Assembly: GCA_012798695.1 (NCBI GenBank)
Contig: JAAZMR010000079.1
Span: 9,733 to 73,732, forward strand
Direction: 5' to 3'
DNA: 64,000 nt
From: Bacillota bacterium
GTDB lineage: Bacteria; Bacillota; Limnochordia; DTU087
Under the pieces are notes generated by a model that was given only the letters and a program-made list of their open reading frames with translations, had not been told where the DNA came from and did no database searches. Positions within the stretch are counted from its first letter, which is position 1; each line of letters opens with the position of its first letter. This document shows, one piece after another, positions 6,371-59,924 of the stretch. A program made the translations under genes and the position numbers.

Positions 6371-8605
<2,235 letters not shown>

Positions 8606-50934: not shown

Positions 50935-51028
50935 GGGCGGCTTGCCCATTGATGCAGGAGGAATTAGCATAGAGGGCGAAAGAGAAGGCGAAGCATAGCA
51001 AATTTCAGAAAAAGAGGTGTATACTGAC

Positions 51029-52351
51029 ATGGCGAAAATCGCCTTTATAGGCGCCGGAAGTCTCGGCTTTACTCGCTCTTTGGTTAGAGACCTGTTGACT
51101 TTTCCGTTACTAGCCGATTCCACTATTGCACTCATGGATATTGACGAAGAACGTCTGGATTTCGCTAAACGAGCAGTGGAGAGGATTGTCAGAGCGGGTA
51201 ATTATCCGGCTAGGGTAGTGGCGACCCTGGATCGTAAGGAAGCTTTAGAGGGTGCTGACGCAGTCTTATGTACAATCTTAGCTGGAGACGTATCAGTCTG
51301 GCGACATGATATCGAAATCCCCAAACAGTTCAATGTTGATACCAATGTGGGTGATACGCGAGGCCCTTCCGGAGTGTTTAGAGCTCTAAGGACCATTCCG
51401 GTTATGCTGGATATCTGCCATGATATGGAGCAGCTCTGTCCAGATGCCATCTTGCTAAATTACACCAATCCCATGTCTATGCTTTGTCGGGCCATGCAGC
51501 GTGAGACAGCGGTGAAGGTGACCGGTTTGTGTCATAGTGTGCAGGGGACCGCGGCCATGTTGGCTCGCTGGATCGGGGCCTCCATGAAAGACATCGATTA
51601 TGTTTGTGCAGGGATTAACCATCAGGCTTGGTACCTAGAATACAAATGGGACAAGAAAGACGCCTATCCTTTGCTCCGGGAAGCTGTTGCTCGGCCTGAG
51701 ATCTACAATGAGGAAATTGTTCGCAACGAGATGTTCCTGCACCTCGATTATTATGTAACTGAATCTAGTGGACACAACTCTGAGTACAATTGGTGGTTCA
51801 GAAAGCGGCCGGAGCTGATCGAGCAGTACTGTATTCACGGCACCGGTTGGAACCCTGGGGAGTATGCCTACATCCTCAAGGAATATCTCCGCAGGGAGGA
51901 TAGTTGGATGCAGGATGTAGAGGAATGGTTTCAACAAGAGGAGCTCGATCTTAATCGGGGCGAAGAATATGCTGCCCATATCATTAATGCCTATCTCGGT
52001 GGTGCGCCCTATGAGTTCAATGGCAATGTCCCCAATACCGGTCTAATCCCGAACCTGCCAAACGAGGCGTGTGTAGAGGTTCCAGTACTGGCTGACCGCA
52101 AAGGGTTTAACCCCATATATGTGGGTGAATTGCCGCCACAGCTAGCTGCCTTGAACAATATCAGTATTGCGGTAGAGGAAATGGCAGTCGAAGGAGCTTT
52201 AACAGGAGATCCACGATTAGTGTTTCACGCTATTTGCTATGATCCGCTGACAGCAGCCGTATGTTCATTGGCTGAGATCAAGGAAATGGTCAAAGCTATG
52301 TTTATCCAAAACCAGGATTATTTACCACAATTTAAGACCACAAAGTTTTAG
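51029..52351 (+). CDS. glycoside hydrolase family 4 (NAD/Mn-dependent alpha-glucosidase/alpha-galactosidase)
   Basis: N-terminal Rossmann KIAFIGAGS and GH4 Cys/His catalytic region. Confidence 0.85.
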
Positions 52352-52399
52352 AGTAGGTCTCACGCAAAAGTGGGTGCCTAGTAGATTGAGGAAAAGCTG

Positions 52400-52436
52400 C
52401 CCGTTGGCTTGTGCAGTTCAGCCGACGGGTATCTTA
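52400..52436 (+). terminator. terminator CCCGTTGGC ... GCCGACGGG plus T-rich tail, end of the + strand sugar cluster
   Basis: 9-bp stem followed by TATCTTATT. Confidence 0.6.
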
Positions 52437-52509
52437 TTGGTTGGGAGGGCCGTTCTGTCTCGCAAGGTCTGTAATTTCGCAATTTGTGGTCTTAGGCATT
52501 TTCCCCAGT

Positions 52510-53208
52510 TCAGTCCTTAGGTACTTGCTTGAAAAGCACTAGATATCTTTCGATGAGGTTCATGATCCAGTTCTCTATGGCGTCACCTTTGACCCAACCG
52601 AGATAGAGCAGTGCGAGAGCTACGCCAGCGACAATGGTCCATCCTTGGATGGTCAAGTTGATTAAGCCTGCACCGGCGATTGTCGATACTAGAATCCCGG
52701 GTGTGCGAAAAAGCAGGAGCAAAATGACAAAGGTCTGTATAGGCATTGGAGTTAGCCCGACGATGAAGCAAAGAGCATCATCAGGCAGAAAAGGCAAAAG
52801 GAAGATCAGGGCGATGCCGCGACGCCCTCTTTTGGTTGTCAGTTTCTCCAAAAAGGCCCTAGTCCTGTGGCCCACAAACCGGTCGACTAGGGGCTTGCCA
52901 AACCATTTGGATAGCTGAAAAACTAGGAGAGAACCAATGAGCATGCTAATCAGGTTGAGTAAGAATCCTAAACCAAGCCCGAAGACATAGCCGCCTGCCA
53001 TTCCTATAACATTGCCCGGCAGAGGGGCAATCAGAATCTGTAAGACATTGAGCAATACAAAGCCAGCCGGTGCCCCAGGGCCGGCCTGATTAAGAAAGGC
53101 TTCCAGTGTATTTCTATCACGAAATAACTGATATAGCTGGGGGCCTGAAAGAAATGGTATGGCTGCAATTATTCCTGCTAAGAGAATCTTTGGCCAACGC
53201 TGCAGCAT
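52510..53208 (-). CDS. TVP38/TMEM64 (DedA-like) family membrane protein
   Basis: Start at internal ATG (MLQRWPKILL) with AAGGGA RBS. Multi-TM. Confidence 0.7.
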   Translation of the reverse strand: MLQRWPKILLAGIIAAIPFLSGPQLYQLFRDRNTLEAFLNQAGPGAPAGFVLLNVLQILIAPLPGNVIGMAGGYVFGLGLGFLLNLISMLIGSLLVFQLSKWFGKPLVDRFVGHRTRAFLEKLTTKRGRRGIALIFLLPFLPDDALCFIVGLTPMPIQTFVILLLLFRTPGILVSTIAGAGLINLTIQGWTIVAGVALALLYLGWVKGDAIENWIMNLIERYLVLFKQVPKD

Positions 53209-53362
53209 CGAATCGTCCCTTTCTTTGTCTAGCAAGATTATATAGCTATGAAAGCGGAAACGCAACTATCGACCCTGCGTATCGGCAGGCATTTGTGTCT
53301 GCTGCGGCGAACTTTCTCGCATGTGAATTTGTCAGGGAAATGTTGAGTGGAGGTGGATAGGA

Positions 53363-54271
53363 ATGCAAAAATGGGCTATTGCTGCCACCTGGCCCTTTGG
53401 ACGTAGGGCCGTCGAGGTTGGTAGTAGATTACTGGATGAGGAACGGAATGGTATCGATGTGGTGGAACAAGCCATACGTGCTGTCGAGCTCGATCCGACC
53501 GTTGATTCGGTGGGGGTAGGGGGAATCCCGAATTATGAGGGGGAAGTGGAGCTGGATGCCGCATTGATGCGTGGAAAGGATCTCGCCATAGGTGCTGTGG
53601 CCGGTGTCAAGAGCTTTCCCAACCCCATCAGCATTGCGCGGTTGGTTTTGGAGAAGACCCCTCATCACCTGATGGTAGGTGATGGGGCAGAGCGGTATGC
53701 TGATGCCCATGGGCTGAAGAGAGATTCGCTGCTCACCTCTAGTTCTCTGGAAAAGTGGAAGAAACGCCGGCAAAGGCAGGTCCAGATCACGGATGAACGG
53801 TGGGGTACGGGTCATGACACCGTGGGGGTTGTGGTTTTAGACAAGGCGGGAGGCATAACCGCAGGTACCTCTACTAGTGGCCTTGCGCTTAAGCTGCCGG
53901 GGCGGGTGGGGGATTCGCCCTTACCGGGCTCGGGCTTGTATGCAGATGATACAGCCGGGGCTGCCGTAGCCACCGGTTGTGGAGAGCTGATCATGCGAGG
54001 CTGTCTTAGTTATGCCATTGTGGAGCTAATGAGGAGCGGCGCTACACCCCAACAGGCCTGTGCAGATGCCCTGGGCCGCCTTGTGGCTAGGCTAGAAAAA
54101 GAGATACCTGTCCGCAATGCCCACCAGGACATGACGAAAATGGCTGTTTTGGCTATGGACCGAGATGGCAACATCGGAGCTGCCGCCAATCACGCAGATT
54201 TTGACTTTGCTTATTGTCTTGCCGAAGATCGGGAAGTGCGTTTGGAACGAGCTAAGATGATCGGTGTATAG
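53363..54271 (+). CDS. isoaspartyl peptidase / L-asparaginase (Ntn-hydrolase, Asparaginase_2)
   Basis: Autoproteolytic site GHDTVGVVVLD (Thr nucleophile) and GAGG motifs. Confidence 0.85.
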   Translation: MQKWAIAATWPFGRRAVEVGSRLLDEERNGIDVVEQAIRAVELDPTVDSVGVGGIPNYEGEVELDAALMRGKDLAIGAVAGVKSFPNPISIARLVLEKTPHHLMVGDGAERYADAHGLKRDSLLTSSSLEKWKKRRQRQVQITDERWGTGHDTVGVVVLDKAGGITAGTSTSGLALKLPGRVGDSPLPGSGLYADDTAGAAVATGCGELIMRGCLSYAIVELMRSGATPQQACADALGRLVARLEKEIPVRNAHQDMTKMAVLAMDRDGNIGAAANHADFDFAYCLAEDREVRLERAKMIGV

Positions 54272-54369
54272 TAGGGCAATACCGGCCTTAGTCAGCCGGG
54301 CTCTGCCTGACACTCTATGCCAGCTCGGGTGTATGGGATTGGTGGTGTACTGGCAATTGAAAATGCCTC

Positions 54370-54398
54370 TTGGCTATCAATAAATAATGTGGTAAAAT
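54370..54398 (+). promoter_or_regulatory. promoter TTGGCT-17-TAAAAT inside an AT-rich island
   Basis: Hexamers with a 17-nt spacer, about 110 nt upstream of the TTG start at 54511. Confidence 0.45.
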
Positions 54399-54510
54399 AA
54401 AAACTTGGTTGGTCAGTATATAAAAGGAGAGGGCGAAGATTAGTTCTGGTGGGAAGCGTTGTTGGCAAAAACACAAAAAAATTTCTAGGTATAGGAAAGG
54501 AAGATAATGG

Positions 54511-55548
54511 TTGAAAAGAACAACGGTTATCATTCTAGTATGCGCAGCATTGTTTGCTCTGGCGATTGGGACTTCGGCCATGGCAGCAGGAGCTCCGGTT
54601 AAACTCGGACTTGGTCATATTACATCGATTGCCAAATCAAAGGATCTAGGTGTTGATGGCAAAGGTAACGTCATCCCGCCAATGGCTCAAGTGGATAGCG
54701 TCATTGCAGCTGTGGCTTTTGATGCTCAGGGTAGAGTGGTAAAGGTCACTCTCGATAGCGCCCAAAGCAAGATCAATTTCAACAAAGATTTTACAGTCTC
54801 CACAGATCTGACCACCAAAGGGTTGACCAAAGTAGAGTTAGGCAATGATTATGGCATGCGCAAAGCCTCGTCCATTGGTAAAGAGTGGAACGAGCAGATA
54901 GCTGAGTTGGAAGAGTGGATGATCGGCAAGACAGTGGCAGAGATCAGGAATCTCAAAGTCAAACAGCGAGATGCTGGGCATCCAGCAGTGCCAGATGTGC
55001 CAGAACTTACATCCTTGGTTACGATCACTGTCCAGGATTATATTGCCGCAGTGGAAGAAGCTTGGGAAAATGCCGTGCCCGTAGCTGCAGGTGGTCGCCA
55101 CTTAGGACTAGGTCATGAAATCTCTCTGGCCAAGTCGAAGCCTGCTAATGCACAGGTTAATACTACTATCGCTGCTTCACTGTTCGATAAGGATGGTAAA
55201 GTGGTAGGTGTCATCCTTGATGTCATACAGACACATGTGCCTTTTGATGCGAAGACAGCCAAGGTAACAGCTGATCGAGATGCAGACGTCAAGAGCAAGA
55301 AAGAACTTGGTGATGCCTATGGCATGGTTCGGGCTTCCGCAATCAAGAAGGAATGGCATGAGCAGGTCGCAGAGTTAGAGCAATGGATGATGGGCAAGAC
55401 CGCCAAGGAGATCCAAGCTCTTAAGGTGAAGCAAAAGGACGCCAACCATGTAGCAGTGCCGGATGTTTCCGAACTCACTTCTCGGGTGACTATGACAGTA
55501 GAGAGCTTTCTCTTTGCAGTGGGCGAGTCCTACACCAGTGCGAAATAA
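54511..55548 (+). CDS. secreted protein with internal tandem duplication (two ~160-aa homologous domains), unknown family. TTG start.
   Basis: Sec signal peptide (…AMA-AG). Domain 2 repeats domain 1, for example LGNDYGMRKASSIGKEWNEQIAELEEWMIGKT against LGDAYGMVRASAIKKEWHEQVAELEQWMMGKT. Confidence 0.7.
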   Translation: MKRTTVIILVCAALFALAIGTSAMAAGAPVKLGLGHITSIAKSKDLGVDGKGNVIPPMAQVDSVIAAVAFDAQGRVVKVTLDSAQSKINFNKDFTVSTDLTTKGLTKVELGNDYGMRKASSIGKEWNEQIAELEEWMIGKTVAEIRNLKVKQRDAGHPAVPDVPELTSLVTITVQDYIAAVEEAWENAVPVAAGGRHLGLGHEISLAKSKPANAQVNTTIAASLFDKDGKVVGVILDVIQTHVPFDAKTAKVTADRDADVKSKKELGDAYGMVRASAIKKEWHEQVAELEQWMMGKTAKEIQALKVKQKDANHVAVPDVSELTSRVTMTVESFLFAVGESYTSAK

Positions 55549-55601
55549 GAGCTAGGGTGTGACCACAGTGGTCAGCATAGGTGTAGTGCTAGCGAACATG
55601 G

Positions 55602-55641
55602 CCAATCCAGCCTCCTCTACTAGTAGGGGAGGCTGGATTGG
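55602..55641 (+). terminator. perfect 14-bp-stem hairpin CCAATCCAGCCTCC-N12-GGAGGCTGGATTGG
   Basis: Located between the tandem-domain gene and apbE. No T-run follows. Confidence 0.55.
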
Positions 55642-55705
55642 TAAGAGGGTCTATGCGAATAAGCACATAGACCATTAGGGTAAGTAGAGTGGACTGGTGG
55701 TGCGG

Positions 55706-56806
55706 ATGAGCAAATCAAGTGTCAGGCTTCTCATAGGTCTTATGCTGATCGCGCTCTTGGGGGGAGCTTTTGCTATCTATCAAGCTGCGGCGCATCGATA
55801 TGAGAAATATACCAATAGCTTTCTCGATACCTTCAATACTGTCACTGTTGTTGTGGCATATGCACGGAGCCAAGAGGAATTTGACTCCTATTATGAGAGG
55901 ATCCACAAGCGGTTTCAGGAGTTGCATCAGCTCTACGATATTTATCATGACTATCCGGGTATCCATAACATCAAGACCATCAATGACAATGCCGGTATCC
56001 AGCCAGTGAAGGTAGATGCGGAGATCATTGACCTGATCCTATTTGCTAAAGAATGGCATCGGCGGACTCATGGCCAGACCAACATAGCTATGGGATCAGT
56101 GCTTGACATATGGCACAAATACCGGGAAGCAGGGCGCAATGATCCTGAGTTAGCCGTACTGCCGCCACTTGAGGAGTTAAAGGCTGCACTGCAGCATACA
56201 GACATCGATCGTATTGTGGTGGATCAGCATGAGGGTACGGTATATCTAACCGACAGTAAGATGTGTCTGGATGTCGGGGCAGTCGCTAAGGGTTATGCTG
56301 CGGAGCTGGTCATCAAGGAGATGGAGGCAGAGGGCCTTGAGTCGGTCATGATCAGTGCCGGTGGGAATATCCGGGCTGTCGGCAAGCCCTTGGATGGTCT
56401 ACGGGAGAGATGGGGAGTAGGCATTCAAGATCCCAGTAGATCGATTTTCTCTGATGATGGGTTGCTTGATGTTGTGTTCATCAATGATGCGGCAGTGGTG
56501 AGTAGTGGTGATTACCAGAGATACTACATTGTTGATGGGAAACCGTTTCACCATCTAATCGACCTGGTTACACTCATGCCGGCAGATTATTACCGGGCAG
56601 TAACAGTGGTGGCGAACGACTCGGGTGTGGCTGATTTTCTCTCAACAGAGCTGTTTTTGCTTCCGTTTGCAGAGAGCAAGGCATTGGCCGAAGGGTTAGA
56701 AGATGTGGAGGCTCTTTGGGTCATGCCTGATGGCCGAGTAGAAGCGACCTCTGGCATGCACAGAATCATGCGCAGCCATGGTGCCTCAGGTGCAGACCCT
56801 GATTGA
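55706..56806 (+). CDS. apbE: FAD:protein FMN transferase (ApbE family), N-terminal membrane anchor
   Basis: ApbE fold motifs (GAVAKGYA, SAGGNI). N-terminal TM helix without lipobox Cys. Confidence 0.85.
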   Translation: MSKSSVRLLIGLMLIALLGGAFAIYQAAAHRYEKYTNSFLDTFNTVTVVVAYARSQEEFDSYYERIHKRFQELHQLYDIYHDYPGIHNIKTINDNAGIQPVKVDAEIIDLILFAKEWHRRTHGQTNIAMGSVLDIWHKYREAGRNDPELAVLPPLEELKAALQHTDIDRIVVDQHEGTVYLTDSKMCLDVGAVAKGYAAELVIKEMEAEGLESVMISAGGNIRAVGKPLDGLRERWGVGIQDPSRSIFSDDGLLDVVFINDAAVVSSGDYQRYYIVDGKPFHHLIDLVTLMPADYYRAVTVVANDSGVADFLSTELFLLPFAESKALAEGLEDVEALWVMPDGRVEATSGMHRIMRSHGASGADPD

Positions 56807-56837
56807 TGGCTGCGAGCTCCTCCATTGCAGGCGTTGC

Positions 56838-57866
56838 TCATACGGGATGACATACCAGATAGACAGTGGGTAGAGAGCCGTGTAGGCTGATTTTCAGCAG
56901 GGGTCGGCATATGAGCTGGGCTAGGTTACAGGCGTGGTCTATGGCCTCTTCCCTATCGGTCAGCATGATAGCTCTTCCAGTGGGTGCTAATACCCGCTTA
57001 GTTTCCAATAGGAATTGCCGATATAGGGTCTCGATCTCTTGGGGGGCAGCAATCTGCTTGCCCCAAGGCAAATTGGTAACGATGGCGTTCACTGATGCGG
57101 ACGGTGTGTCCCACAGATCACAGGCATCCAGACAACGCAGGGTGACCTCGGCTGGGGCATTTTCCCTTGCGGCCTCGATTGCTGTAGGTGAGATATCCCC
57201 ACCGGTAATCGAAACCGCCTCATAGGTTGCTCGTTCGATGGGAATGGTACCTGAACCACAAAATGGGTCAAGGAACACATCACTGGACCGGGGTTCAGAT
57301 AGCCAGACCAAAGCATGGGCGATAGGAGGCCGCAGTGCAGCCCGGGAGAACGTGCGCTGCCCTCGAAACCGGAAGGCTGCACTAGTCAGCTTCAGTGAAA
57401 TGAGGGCATCATGGTCAACTATATCTAATCGAAATTCGCAGTCATACGCCTCGGTTGTACCGGGAACAAACCCATGGGCAGCGGTGAGTCCTTCCAACAC
57501 AGCCCAGCCAGCATCAAATCGATTGAAGGTATGGTGTCCACTACGGCTGGCATTGACAATTGCCCTGGCCTTAGTTTTCGGTAACAGATAGGGGATGTCC
57601 GGGAAATGCATGTTCTCGATGTCCTTAGTCAGGTGTTCCAGATCAGCCTTATGGGGTCCGACTTTCAGCCAACCTATATGAACGTAGATATTGTCCACAC
57701 ATCGCAGCTGCTGCAGGTCTTCCCAAGGGGAATTGGCAACGAAGAGGACTCGTCCCCGCAGTTGGGCTTGAATCCAGGCTCCTGGCAGTTTAGTGGTGAG
57801 TTCTGAGATGGCAACATCCTCTAGACCCGGTGCGACCGTGACCATATATGTGGGAACGGTTGACAT
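56838..57866 (-). CDS. THUMP-domain class I SAM-dependent RNA methyltransferase (UPF0020, RlmL N-terminal-half-like)
   Basis: DPFCGSGT (motif I) and NLPWG (motif IV) after an N-terminal THUMP-like region. Confidence 0.75.
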   Translation of the reverse strand: MSTVPTYMVTVAPGLEDVAISELTTKLPGAWIQAQLRGRVLFVANSPWEDLQQLRCVDNIYVHIGWLKVGPHKADLEHLTKDIENMHFPDIPYLLPKTKARAIVNASRSGHHTFNRFDAGWAVLEGLTAAHGFVPGTTEAYDCEFRLDIVDHDALISLKLTSAAFRFRGQRTFSRAALRPPIAHALVWLSEPRSSDVFLDPFCGSGTIPIERATYEAVSITGGDISPTAIEAARENAPAEVTLRCLDACDLWDTPSASVNAIVTNLPWGKQIAAPQEIETLYRQFLLETKRVLAPTGRAIMLTDREEAIDHACNLAQLICRPLLKISLHGSLPTVYLVCHPV

Positions 57867-57938
57867 GAATGCCCTCCTAGATATCAGTGGGAGCGGGCCA
57901 GCCCCTGCCCAGGAGGGCAGGAGCTCGCCTTTGCAAGA

Positions 57939-59924
57939 CTAGGCTTCCCGCAACACCTTCACTTCATAAGGCTCTAGTTCGATCTTGCCAGTCATAGGCG
58001 TTTCTGTCAACACATCGACATAATCATTGGGTAGAACAGCGGTCTGCGTGTTTGGTTCATGGTTGAGCAGGAAAAGCAATCGCATGCCGTCTTTTTCCCG
58101 AATTGCGGTCTCAATGCCAGTCTCGGCTAGGGCACCATGGGCCACACCGGCTTTAACTAACACGTAATCGATCAGTCTGGAAGTGAGATCAGCATCCAGC
58201 CGAGTACCTACATAGATGGCCTCACCCTTGTCGAAGGCATTTTGGGTGACAGCTGCTTTGCCAGCGTAATATTCTGTGCTGTATTTGGCTAAGACCTGAG
58301 CGGTACGAGGGACGATCACATCAGACCAGGTACAGGCATTGCCCTCTAGCTCTTGGCCCTCCAGCTCCATGGTGATTCCAATCGGGGCATCTCCATAAAT
58401 TGAATCATATTCCTCTATCTCGATTCCCATGAGTTCTGACAGTTCACCAGGTAGGGTTTTCTCGGTTACAGCGTTATTCCAGTCCTTAACACCGGAGCGG
58501 AAAGTTGTAATCAATATGCCTCCGGCTTGCACAAACTGGGTCAGTTTGCCGACAAGTTCTGGTGTCATCAGGTACAGCAGTGGCGCGATCAGGATCTTGT
58601 ACTCAGAGAAATCATCAGCATGGTTAATCAGATCGACACCGATATTGAGCTCATGGAAGCGTGTGTAGTATTCCTTTGCTATCGCAATGTAGTTTAGGTT
58701 GGGGTTATTGGGCTGAATCTGCAAAGCCCAGAGCTGGTCATAAGAGTATAACATAGCCACTTCGTTTTTTACCTGGGTTCCCTGAAGTAAAGGCCACAGC
58801 TGCTTCAGCTCCTCACCAGTCTGCTGGACCTCCTGGTAGCGACGGCGGGGTCTGCCGTCATGGTCGAGGATGCCATGCCAGTATTCCTCGGTGCCAAACC
58901 GACAAGTGCGCCATCGGAAATATACTATGCCATCGGCTCCGCGGGATACGGCCTGGTATGTCCAAAGGCGAATCTCGCCGGGGCGAGGCATAGAACCAAC
59001 CAGTTCCCAACCGCTGGGTCCACTTTGTTCTTCCATCACCCAGAAGTTTTGTTTGCGGATTCCCCGCATCAGATCATGGCTCAGTGCTAGACGTGTACTA
59101 TCTGGTGCTCCGCCACCCCTAGGATAATTATCCCAGGAAATGAAGTCTAGGTCAGCACAGAGCTTGTAATAATCAATTTCCGGGAACAGCCCCATGAGGT
59201 TATGAGTGATAAACTGGTTTTCGGCATGCTGGCGAAGTATGCGGATCTGGCGTGCTTGATACTCCACTTTCATGTCTGAGGAAAAGCGATAAAAATCCAG
59301 TAGTAAACCGGGGTTGTGTGAGGCCACAGTCTTTCTGGGTATGATCACTTGATCCCACGAGGTATATATCTGGCTCCAGAAAACCGTTCCCCAGGCTTGG
59401 TTTAGTGCCTCCAAAGTCCCGTATTTCCGCTGGAGCCATTGGTGAAATGCCTTCTGGCAAGAATCGCAATAGCATCTTGTGGTGGAGTGGCAACCAAACT
59501 CATTGTCTGTCTGCCAACCAATGACTCCTGGGTGGTGACCATAGTGCTCGGCCAATTGGCCCACGATCAGATCACTATACCAGTGATAGGTCTTGTTAGT
59601 GGAACAATAATGACAACGAGAACCAAAACCACGCACGTGACCGTCGGCATCAACTGGCAAAATATCCGGGTGCTTGTCGATCAGCCATTTGGGCGGGGTA
59701 GCTGTAGGGGTGCCTATGATCACTTGAATATTATGCCTGTTGAGAATCTCGATAGCCTTGTCTAGCCAGGCGAAATCATAGCATCCCTCGGCCGGCTCCA
59801 ATTTGGACCAGGCAAACTCGGCCACCCTCACCACGTTCAGGTTCGCCGCTTGCATCAGTTGTGCATCTGTCTCCCAGCGCTCTTCTGGCCAGTGTTCGGG
59901 GTAGTAATCTGCTCCGTAATGCAT
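57939..59924 (-). CDS. beta-galactosidase, glycoside hydrolase family 42
   Basis: N-terminal HYGADYYPEHWPEE and NVVRVAEFAWSKLEP motifs, GH42 trimerisation domain. 661 aa. Confidence 0.9.
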   Translation of the reverse strand: MHYGADYYPEHWPEERWETDAQLMQAANLNVVRVAEFAWSKLEPAEGCYDFAWLDKAIEILNRHNIQVIIGTPTATPPKWLIDKHPDILPVDADGHVRGFGSRCHYCSTNKTYHWYSDLIVGQLAEHYGHHPGVIGWQTDNEFGCHSTTRCYCDSCQKAFHQWLQRKYGTLEALNQAWGTVFWSQIYTSWDQVIIPRKTVASHNPGLLLDFYRFSSDMKVEYQARQIRILRQHAENQFITHNLMGLFPEIDYYKLCADLDFISWDNYPRGGGAPDSTRLALSHDLMRGIRKQNFWVMEEQSGPSGWELVGSMPRPGEIRLWTYQAVSRGADGIVYFRWRTCRFGTEEYWHGILDHDGRPRRRYQEVQQTGEELKQLWPLLQGTQVKNEVAMLYSYDQLWALQIQPNNPNLNYIAIAKEYYTRFHELNIGVDLINHADDFSEYKILIAPLLYLMTPELVGKLTQFVQAGGILITTFRSGVKDWNNAVTEKTLPGELSELMGIEIEEYDSIYGDAPIGITMELEGQELEGNACTWSDVIVPRTAQVLAKYSTEYYAGKAAVTQNAFDKGEAIYVGTRLDADLTSRLIDYVLVKAGVAHGALAETGIETAIREKDGMRLLFLLNHEPNTQTAVLPNDYVDVLTETPMTGKIELEPYEVKVLREA

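Follow-up and report, generated by a model that had tools for sequence, protein, structure and literature searches.

A secreted protein with two divergent FMN_bind-type domains, encoded next to ApbE in a Bacillota bacterium, is a candidate flavoprotein with an off-consensus attachment site

Results

The 64-kb stretch of Bacillota DNA analysed here (the window) contains a gene at 54511..55548 for a secreted protein of 345 aa that, judged from its sequence, is very probably an extracellular flavoprotein, because two divergent domains of the FMN-binding fold are combined with a strongly conserved two-gene unit with ApbE. The flavin would be bound covalently at a site that deviates from the textbook motif. 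All features described below are on the forward strand. The TTG codon taken as start in the original prediction is the earliest possible start of the open reading frame, and the coordinates and content proposed for the gene were correct.

Inspection of the translation confirmed the proposed Sec signal peptide, which comprises residues 1-25 (54511..54585) with predicted cleavage after A-M-A and without a lipobox. A lipobox regular expression was likewise negative for this protein and positive in 298 of 445 relatives. The remainder consists of an internal repeat, with domain 1 spanning residues 28-190 (54592..55080) and domain 2 residues 194-345 (55090..55545). The repeats of approximately 155 aa (domains of 152-163 aa) are 51% identical overall (E 4e-50), in agreement with the claim of two homologous domains; the approximately 70% identity claimed for their C-terminal halves was too high, as we measured 62% (51/82). 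Both repeats contain the segment W-M-x-GKT...AVPDV-x-ELTS-x-VT-x-TV and both lack the canonical SGAT, as had been stated. In domain 1, β-strands comprise residues 31-39, 58-70 and 75-90 and helices residues 107-146 and 175-186.

Searches of Pfam and NCBIfam gave no match to the protein, and the Pfam FMN_bind model (PF04205, gathering threshold 22 bits) did not match it even at E values up to 1. Among relatives, only two distant ones gave sub-threshold matches to this model (13.8 and 16.4 bits). Comparison of the whole structural model with the PDB by Foldseek returned only noise. The predicted structure nevertheless has the fold of the FMN_bind superfamily, and the original prediction is not refuted by a lack of similarity to flavin-binding folds. 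Three comparisons, each weak, agree on the alignment register: the family HMM retrieved 2KZX from the PDB (E 0.57) with S-L-V-T aligned to S-G-A-T, hhalign against a small FMN_bind alignment gave a probability of 55% (P 1.2e-4) in the same register, and tblastn of 2KZX against the window matched 55315..55512 in domain 2 (E 0.003), again in this register. In some relatives, a canonical FMN_bind domain bearing D-V-x-A-G-A-T is part of the same protein. The family is a divergent, Pfam-invisible subtype of FMN_bind and not the new domain family that had been considered as an option.

The accepted motif for flavinylation by ApbE is D-x-x-[S/T]-G-A-[S/T] (PMC12052999). The corresponding segments of the window protein, E165-L-T-S-L-V-T171 (55003..55023, T171 codon 55021..55023) and E321-L-T-S-R-V-T327 (55471..55491, T327 codon 55489..55491), retain an acidic first residue and the terminal threonine and have lost the G-A core. 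T171, placed by the alignment of the HMM with 2KZX and by hhalign, and T327, which falls into the same alignment column, are the candidate sites because the HMM, hhalign and SGAT-bearing relatives all put them at the flavinylated position. The same evidence led us to reject S168 and S324, which follow from the register of the original prediction. Of 1,098 family domains without gaps, 99.5% have T or S at the site and 98% have D or E at position -6; position -5 is L in 96% and position -1 is V, C or A. D82, K107, Y114, W126 and Q129 are further conserved residues. A canonical SGAT occupies the site column in 15 family domains. In P0245 and P0285, one domain has D-L-A-S-G-A-T at this column and the partner domain of the same protein D-L-A-S-S-V-T. 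We know of no family member that has been experimentally demonstrated to carry a flavin.

The gene adjoining downstream, at 55697..56806, encodes an ApbE-family FAD:protein FMN transferase (PF02424, 9e-63) with a hydrophobic N-terminal membrane anchor, just as proposed. Its homologues in the PDB include Ftp from T. pallidum (2e-34) and FmnB from Listeria (7ESA, 3e-29). Comparison of start-site conservation suggests that the ATG at 55706 is more likely to be the true start than the GTG at 55697.

ApbE is the only conserved neighbour of the family gene. Of 76 informative loci, 70 have it as the next gene downstream in the same orientation and one has it on the upstream side (71/76 adjacent), contrary to the reservation in the original prediction that the neighbourhood might be coincidental. 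The median apparent gap between the two genes is about 200 bp, and the ApbE orthologues following the family gene are 43-66% identical. Association with apbE (71/76) accompanies an extracytoplasmic location, the latter deduced from the signal peptide by inspection. In approximately 19 of 80 loci, the gene order is Ndh2-DmkB-DmkA-EetA(NusG_II)-EetB(PF07456)-family-ApbE, with the family gene in the slot of PplA. The FAD used by ApbE is exported by EetB (PMC9973259). The suggested link to extracellular electron transfer is supported by these relatives but not by the window itself, where a tblastn search over all 64 kb for the five other genes of the electron-transfer locus was negative and ApbE was the only partner present. 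The immediate neighbours in the window are carbohydrate and housekeeping genes, which are syntenic in the closest relative. The Ndh2 partners in the electron-transfer loci contain loops with repeated D-A-V-S-S-A-T, suggesting that these ApbEs tolerate serine at the 'G' position. Because such loops, in which D-G-T-S-G-A-T also occurs, offer a more canonical motif, the family protein is not the sole candidate substrate of ApbE in these loci, and we dropped the assumption that it was.

At 50% identity, the family falls into 1,870 clusters. Lipoproteins or secreted proteins that stand alone and have ApbE as their only partner make up the majority. Two domain copies per protein are by far the most common arrangement (318 proteins), followed by four (71), one (40), six (10), three (4) and eight (2). 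P0371 consists of a Ser/Thr protein kinase domain (Pkinase), a transmembrane helix and two family domains as the extracellular part, and P0452 joins the tandem unit to a domain of the periplasmic binding protein type.

The family is probably identical with the published 'FMN-bind2' subtype, which was defined from structural models as a unit of two domains paired via their β-sheets (Huang, Meheust, Barquera and Light, mSystems 2024, PMC11334425); this identification relies on shared properties. Both have domains of about 160 aa in mostly even copy numbers, are extracytoplasmic and occur in Firmicutes. FMN-bind2 has extra segments relative to 3O6U between β1 and β2 and between β3 and α1, and at these places the model of the window protein (pTM 0.87, confident packing of the domains) shows segments of 18 and 16 aa. 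The FMN-bind2 domains were located by BLAST instead of Pfam, and their flavinylation was assumed from models only (PMC11334425). Neither of the published examples, NTW96865.1 (two domains) and WP_312031774.1 (six domains), was among the results of our single-domain profile (proteins of at most 288 aa), an exhaustive search of representatives with look-ups of clusters or a six-domain profile. The non-canonical S-x-V-T site, ApbE operon statistics and the occurrence at the PplA position are not part of the FMN-bind2 paper (PMC11334425).

The intergenic spacer at 54272..54510, which presumably contains the promoter region and a leader of about 110 nt for the flavin-domain gene, is AT-rich as claimed. 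It is 239 nt long, one less than originally given, and its GC content of 43.1% lies at the 1.7th percentile of the window (mean 50.6%). The 239-nt stretch with the lowest GC content of the entire window starts at 54331 (38.5%), and the spacer core at 54340..54510 has 36.8% GC. The sequence TTGGCT-17-TAAAAT is present at 54370..54398 as reported, and it additionally has a TG extended -10 element, making it a candidate sigma-70-type promoter (9/12 matches in a scan). As a match, it is not statistically special, with four promoter-like sites in the region against 4.2 in shuffled sequences, and we dropped this line of support. Better evidence for promoter function comes from a relative with 81% identity (L081), in which both hexamers and the TG (TGgTA[AG]AAT) are kept in the spacer while the flanks have diverged. 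An Rfam search of 54272..54510 revealed no family match and no riboswitch for FMN or any other ligand. A putative ribosome-binding site, AGGAAAGGAAG (54493..54503), can be read from the sequence 7 nt 5' of the TTG start.

Between the flavin-domain gene and apbE, a perfect 19-bp hairpin without a U tract is located at 55601..55642 (intergenic fold z -4.75). The missing T run rules out a canonical terminator, and the hairpin is not a repeated element, since no second copy was found in the window. L081 has a hairpin at the equivalent place with different, compensating arm sequences. It may act as a partial terminator or mRNA stabiliser.

Discussion

We consider it fairly probable that 54511..55548 and apbE make up a substrate-enzyme unit in which flavin is attached to an exported protein. 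This protein of 345 aa would pass through Sec and be cleaved free by signal peptidase I, and its two domains of about 155 aa, which are predicted to adopt an enlarged, FMN-bind2-like version of the FMN_bind-type fold, would pack together. The membrane-anchored ApbE, with its catalytic domain outside, would use FAD as source of the FMN that it couples to T171 and T327 in phosphoester linkage, where the motif [E/D]-L-T-S-x-V-T would take the place of D-x-x-[S/T]-G-A-[S/T]. The resulting two-flavin protein may carry electrons outside the cytoplasm, comparable to PplA in flavin-based extracellular electron transfer of Listeria.

Less likely is that the protein represents a degenerate FMN_bind relative without covalent flavin, acting as a non-covalent binder, scaffold or chaperone, while ApbE mainly serves other substrates such as RnfG/RnfD, Ndh2 loops or canonical FMN_bind proteins encoded elsewhere in the genome. 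The replacement of S-G-A-T by S-L-V-T and S-R-V-T, which eliminates the G-A core in both domains and places an arginine at the 'G' position in domain 2, argues against modification, and so does the missing match to Pfam FMN_bind. In addition, Ndh2 carries better motifs in the electron-transfer loci, and the alternation of SGAT and SSVT in some four-domain relatives could mean that only one domain per pair is modified. However, the almost invariant T/S at the site and acidic residue at -6 are difficult to account for unless the site is under selection, although T, D/E and L could also be retained for a structural reason such as helix capping. Linkage to ApbE (93%) extends to loci that lack other substrate genes in the vicinity, and in an assayed model substrate a single G-to-A or A-to-V change merely halved flavinylation, with approximately 50% retained (PMC12052999). 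The fold, the corresponding position and conservation of the site residue, the linkage to ApbE and the electron-transfer context of relatives are observed, whereas covalent flavin at T171 and T327, a role in electron transfer and the donors and acceptors in the window organism are inferred.

It is improbable that the domains constitute an extracytoplasmic sensing or ligand-binding module, responding to redox or flavin status or to a small molecule, instead of an electron conduit. The fusions to a kinase in P0371 and to a periplasmic binding protein in P0452 would fit such a function, as would the missing electron-transfer partners in the window locus. In contrast, the predominance of stand-alone members paired with ApbE only, the placement of about a quarter of the family at the PplA position in electron-transfer loci and the lack of a signalling output domain in the window protein argue against it. 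Sensing would not conflict with flavinylation and shares features with the substrate-enzyme unit outlined above. An unrelated new domain family that lies next to apbE by chance, which the fruitless Pfam, NCBIfam and Foldseek searches might suggest, has a negligible probability, since our results already refute it.

Returning to flavinylation of the window protein by ApbE, surveys of extracytoplasmic flavinylation identify substrates by the FMN_bind model of Pfam and by the [S/T]GA[S/T] motif, and both miss this family, which is abundant in anaerobic Bacillota and nearly always encoded with ApbE. We lean slightly towards the view that a clade of Bacillota ApbE/FmnB enzymes flavinylates the off-consensus motif [D/E]-L-x-[S/A]-x-V-[T/S]. 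If this were true, secreted or lipid-anchored proteins that Pfam does not recognise, in approximately 1,900 clusters (50% identity), would be covalent flavoproteins, and part of the genomes with 'orphan apbE' would be explained by gaining a substrate. Flavin-based extracellular electron transfer, and possibly redox sensing by kinase fusions, would then be more widespread in Clostridia than reported by surveys based on motifs or Pfam. FMN at T171 and T327 would widen the recognition rule of ApbE, which is relevant to its use in protein labelling, and would identify the PplA equivalent of clostridial extracellular electron transfer loci. If FMN is absent from these residues, the family would clearly exemplify how a flavinylation domain dispensed with the covalent cofactor and retained the enzyme partner.

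Among known systems, PplA/FmnB of Listeria monocytogenes is similar in combining a secreted or lipid-anchored protein containing two FMN_bind-type domains with an adjoining gene for an ApbE-type transferase, and among 80 related loci there are about 19 with the family gene instead of PplA beside Ndh2, DmkA, DmkB, EetA and EetB. The flavinylated residues of PplA are T143 and T265 (PMC8906456). This spacing of 122 residues fits the compact FMN-bind1 type, whereas the candidate sites of the window protein are 156 residues apart and lie in a non-canonical motif. Also unlike PplA, the window protein lacks a lipobox, and the window lacks the other genes of the PplA locus. Canonical FMN_bind proteins (PF04205: C. 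thermocellum A3DHT5/2KZX, C. perfringens CPE2226/3O6U and NqrC/RnfG) contain S/T-G-A-T and exceed the Pfam threshold. In contrast to single-domain FMN_bind proteins, the window protein is a fused pair in which six inserted residues, V-P-D-V-P-E, precede the site. SaFMN3 and CbFMN4 (8P2A, 8P2B) have domains of 80-90 aa with canonical motifs arranged like beads on a string, whereas the domains of the window protein are paired and comprise about 155 aa.

Gene pair and putative expression signals

The original prediction of an extracytoplasmic flavinylation pair, made up of a secreted tandem protein and ApbE, describes a real finding and reads it largely correctly. The pair belongs, in divergent form, to a known kind of system, ApbE with an extracytoplasmic FMN_bind substrate; neither a new system nor, as had alternatively been proposed, a new domain family is involved. 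Two features make it interesting: a site that breaks the accepted ApbE motif, and a large family that standard annotation misses.

The spacer behind the asparaginase-type gene (PF01112, 53363..54271) comprises 239 nt and is as AT-rich as predicted, with 43% GC versus a window mean of 50.6%; it overlaps the lowest-GC 239-nt stretch in the entire 64 kb, which starts at 54331. The promoter candidate TTGGCT-17-TAAAAT is present at 54370..54398 and has a TG ahead of the -10 hexamer (extended -10). Promoter-like matches in the region were not more frequent than in shuffled sequence. Both hexamers and the TG are kept in the equivalent spacer of L081, the locus of the closest relative (81% identical; anaerobic-digester genome GCA_012518315.1), while the rest of that spacer diverged, and the element may act as promoter. 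The flavin-domain ORF (54511..55548) begins with TTG, the first possible start, preceded at a distance of 7 nt by AGGAAAGGAAG. As anticipated, its product has two homologous repeats (51% identical, E 4e-50) behind a classical signal peptide that terminates with A-M-A; there is no lipobox. The C-terminal halves of the repeats are indeed strongly alike, but their identity is 62% instead of the previously estimated 70% or so. In some homologues, e.g. P0089 from Fonticella tunisiensis, these halves are identical, which points to gene conversion between repeats in some lineages.

The next gene encodes, as described, a membrane-anchored ApbE-family FMN transferase (PF02424, 9e-63; N-terminal hydrophobic anchor), with T. 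pallidum Ftp and Listeria FmnB among its homologues in the PDB. The ORF was listed from GTG 55697, but the real start is probably ATG 55706 (366 aa), because GGTGGTG followed by ATG is conserved in L081. A 19-bp perfect hairpin without U tract separates the two genes (55601-55642; intergenic fold z -4.75). In L081, a hairpin at the equivalent place (about 7090-7135) has different but mutually complementary arms, so that structure and not sequence is conserved. Such a hairpin would fit expression of the substrate above the enzyme.

Candidate flavin sites

The family of homologous domains has the FMN_bind fold. In a search of the family HMM against the PDB, S-L-V-T-I-T-V-Q-D-Y was aligned with S-G-A-T-I-K-V-K-K-F of 2KZX, a canonical FMN_bind structure, and the segments Y-G-M...E-W-x-E-Q and K-V-K-x-x-D-x-G-H were paired as well. 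With hhalign, 247 family domains compared with a small FMN_bind alignment matched E-L-T-S-x-V-T to D-x-I-S-G-A-T (P 1.2e-4). In the homologues P0245 and P0285, one domain reads D-L-A-S-G-A-T at the site column and its partner D-L-A-S-S-V-T. All three comparisons, independent of one another, give the same register, so the candidate flavinylation sites are T171 and T327 and not the serines three residues before them. Among 1,098 ungapped distinct family domains, the site is T or S in 99.5%, position -6 is D or E in 98% and position -5 is L in 96%, whereas position -1 is V in 871, C in 108 and A in 98 domains, and position -2 varies (S, L, T, G, K, R). The accepted ApbE motif is therefore preserved at either end, and its G-A core is lost. 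The canonical SGAT is absent from the window protein, as originally noted, and domain 2 has Arg at -2. In a model ApbE substrate, G-to-A and A-to-V exchanges each keep about 50% flavinylation, and removing the Asp matters little (PMC12052999).

Linkage to ApbE and electron-transfer genes

Synteny was analyzed in 80 genome loci with relatives 38-67% identical, 76 of which had enough sequence to judge. An orthologue of the window's ApbE (43-66% identity) directly follows the family gene in the same orientation in 70 of these 76 and directly precedes it in one further locus. When all neighbouring ORFs were clustered, ApbE alone stood out as conserved throughout; a coincidental apbE neighbour, considered in the original prediction, can be dismissed. 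In about 19 loci, the family gene and ApbE close a longer conserved string encoding an Ndh2-like NADH dehydrogenase with C-terminal membrane domain (Ndh2), a polyprenyl synthase (DmkB), a UbiA prenyltransferase (DmkA), a NusG_II protein (EetA) and a PF07456 protein (EetB). These correspond to the flavin-based extracellular electron transfer locus of Listeria (PMC8906456), and the family gene occupies the position of pplA; EetB is the FAD exporter supplying ApbE (PMC9973259). The proposed link to extracellular electron transfer is thereby supported in relatives. Within the 64-kb window, no other electron-transfer genes were found, and in the window and the closest relative the pair is surrounded by unrelated carbohydrate and housekeeping genes. 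L081 shares the complete gene order of window 51017-59924 (GH4 glycosidase, DedA/VTT, asparaginase-type peptidase, flavin-domain gene, ApbE, THUMP-type methyltransferase, GH42 beta-galactosidase), which assigns the window to the lineage of this digester Bacillota genome.

The Ndh2-like proteins of clostridial electron-transfer loci (L068, L071, L073, L074, L076-L080; also L056, L057, L065-L067, L075, L005, L006; e.g. genes L077:2616-4760, L078:2876-4924, L079:2934-4907) contain an Ala/Gly/Thr-rich loop, predicted to face outside because it directly follows the first C-terminal membrane helix. The loop carries 1-4 tandem ApbE-type motifs (DGTSGAT, DGASGAT, DAAAGAT, DAASGAS, repeated DAVSSAT/DAVSAAT), which suggests that Ndh2 itself receives flavin, possibly at several sites. 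No mention of this turned up in a text search of PMC8238504.

In the most likely mechanism, the window protein is secreted and folds as a pair of FMN_bind-type domains, the neighbouring membrane-anchored ApbE would load FMN onto T171 and T327, and the loaded protein would carry electrons outside the membrane. We infer its covalent flavin modification, and likewise where the electrons flow and with which partners. In the main rival explanation, a decayed site leaves the protein unmodified and ApbE serves other targets. Such decay is favoured by loss of the G-A core, by the Arg at -2 of domain 2 and by the Ndh2 loops of the electron-transfer loci, whose motifs are better; however, the site Thr/Ser is conserved almost absolutely and the linkage to ApbE reaches 93%, even without another substrate gene nearby.

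Family size and architectures

Listeria PplA is a functional analogue of the window protein, but its flavinylated residues T143 and T265 are 122 residues apart (PMC8906456), indicating a compact domain type, whereas the candidate sites of the window protein are 156 apart. Using AlphaFold models and BLAST searches, Huang et al. (2024) recognised an 'FMN-bind2' subtype, about 160 aa long, whose domains come as two or four copies (six in one example) and pair through beta-sheets (PMC11334425). Domain length, copy numbers and invisibility to Pfam are alike, and predicted secondary structure places extra segments at the corresponding positions; judged by this description, our family is probably FMN-bind2. 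The non-canonical site, the operon statistics and the PplA-position context are absent from that paper, nor does it cite any experiment with such domains.

A Pfam and NCBIfam search of the window protein gave no match. A word-indexed search yielded >900 homologues, almost exclusively from Bacillota (Clostridia, Tissierellia, Paenibacillus, Brevibacillus and numerous metagenome genomes from digesters). An exhaustive search gave 1,870 clusters (50% identity), including 761 below 1e-30. The domains measure 152-163 aa and occur once (40 proteins), twice (318), three (4), four (71), six (10) or eight times (2). Some relatives carry a canonical N-terminal FMN_bind domain (D-V-x-A-G-A-T) fused to family domains. 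In Sedimentibacter-like genomes (L034:7086-9422, L044:7092-9452, L038:7581-8957, L039:7575-8960; D-V-[VI]-A-G-A-T), this domain precedes two or four family domains, with a 741-aa exported protein upstream and a ZIP transporter downstream; in L031 it is a separate ORF upstream. P0452 combines the tandem unit with a Peripla_BP_4 solute-binding domain, as does P0453 according to precomputed Pfam only (both about 680 aa); in P0100 (482 aa), the unit is joined to the cell-wall-binding domain PG_binding_1. P0371 (719 aa, metagenome) combines Pkinase (6-232), one membrane helix and two outside family domains (421-716) with the motifs SSAT and SSVT, and may be a flavin- or redox-sensing receptor Ser/Thr kinase. 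Outside Bacillota, the six-domain spirochaete member P0249 (983 aa, MCQ2411964.1, Sphaerochaetaceae), whose site reads A-S-C-S, suggests horizontal spread of the family and further motif drift.
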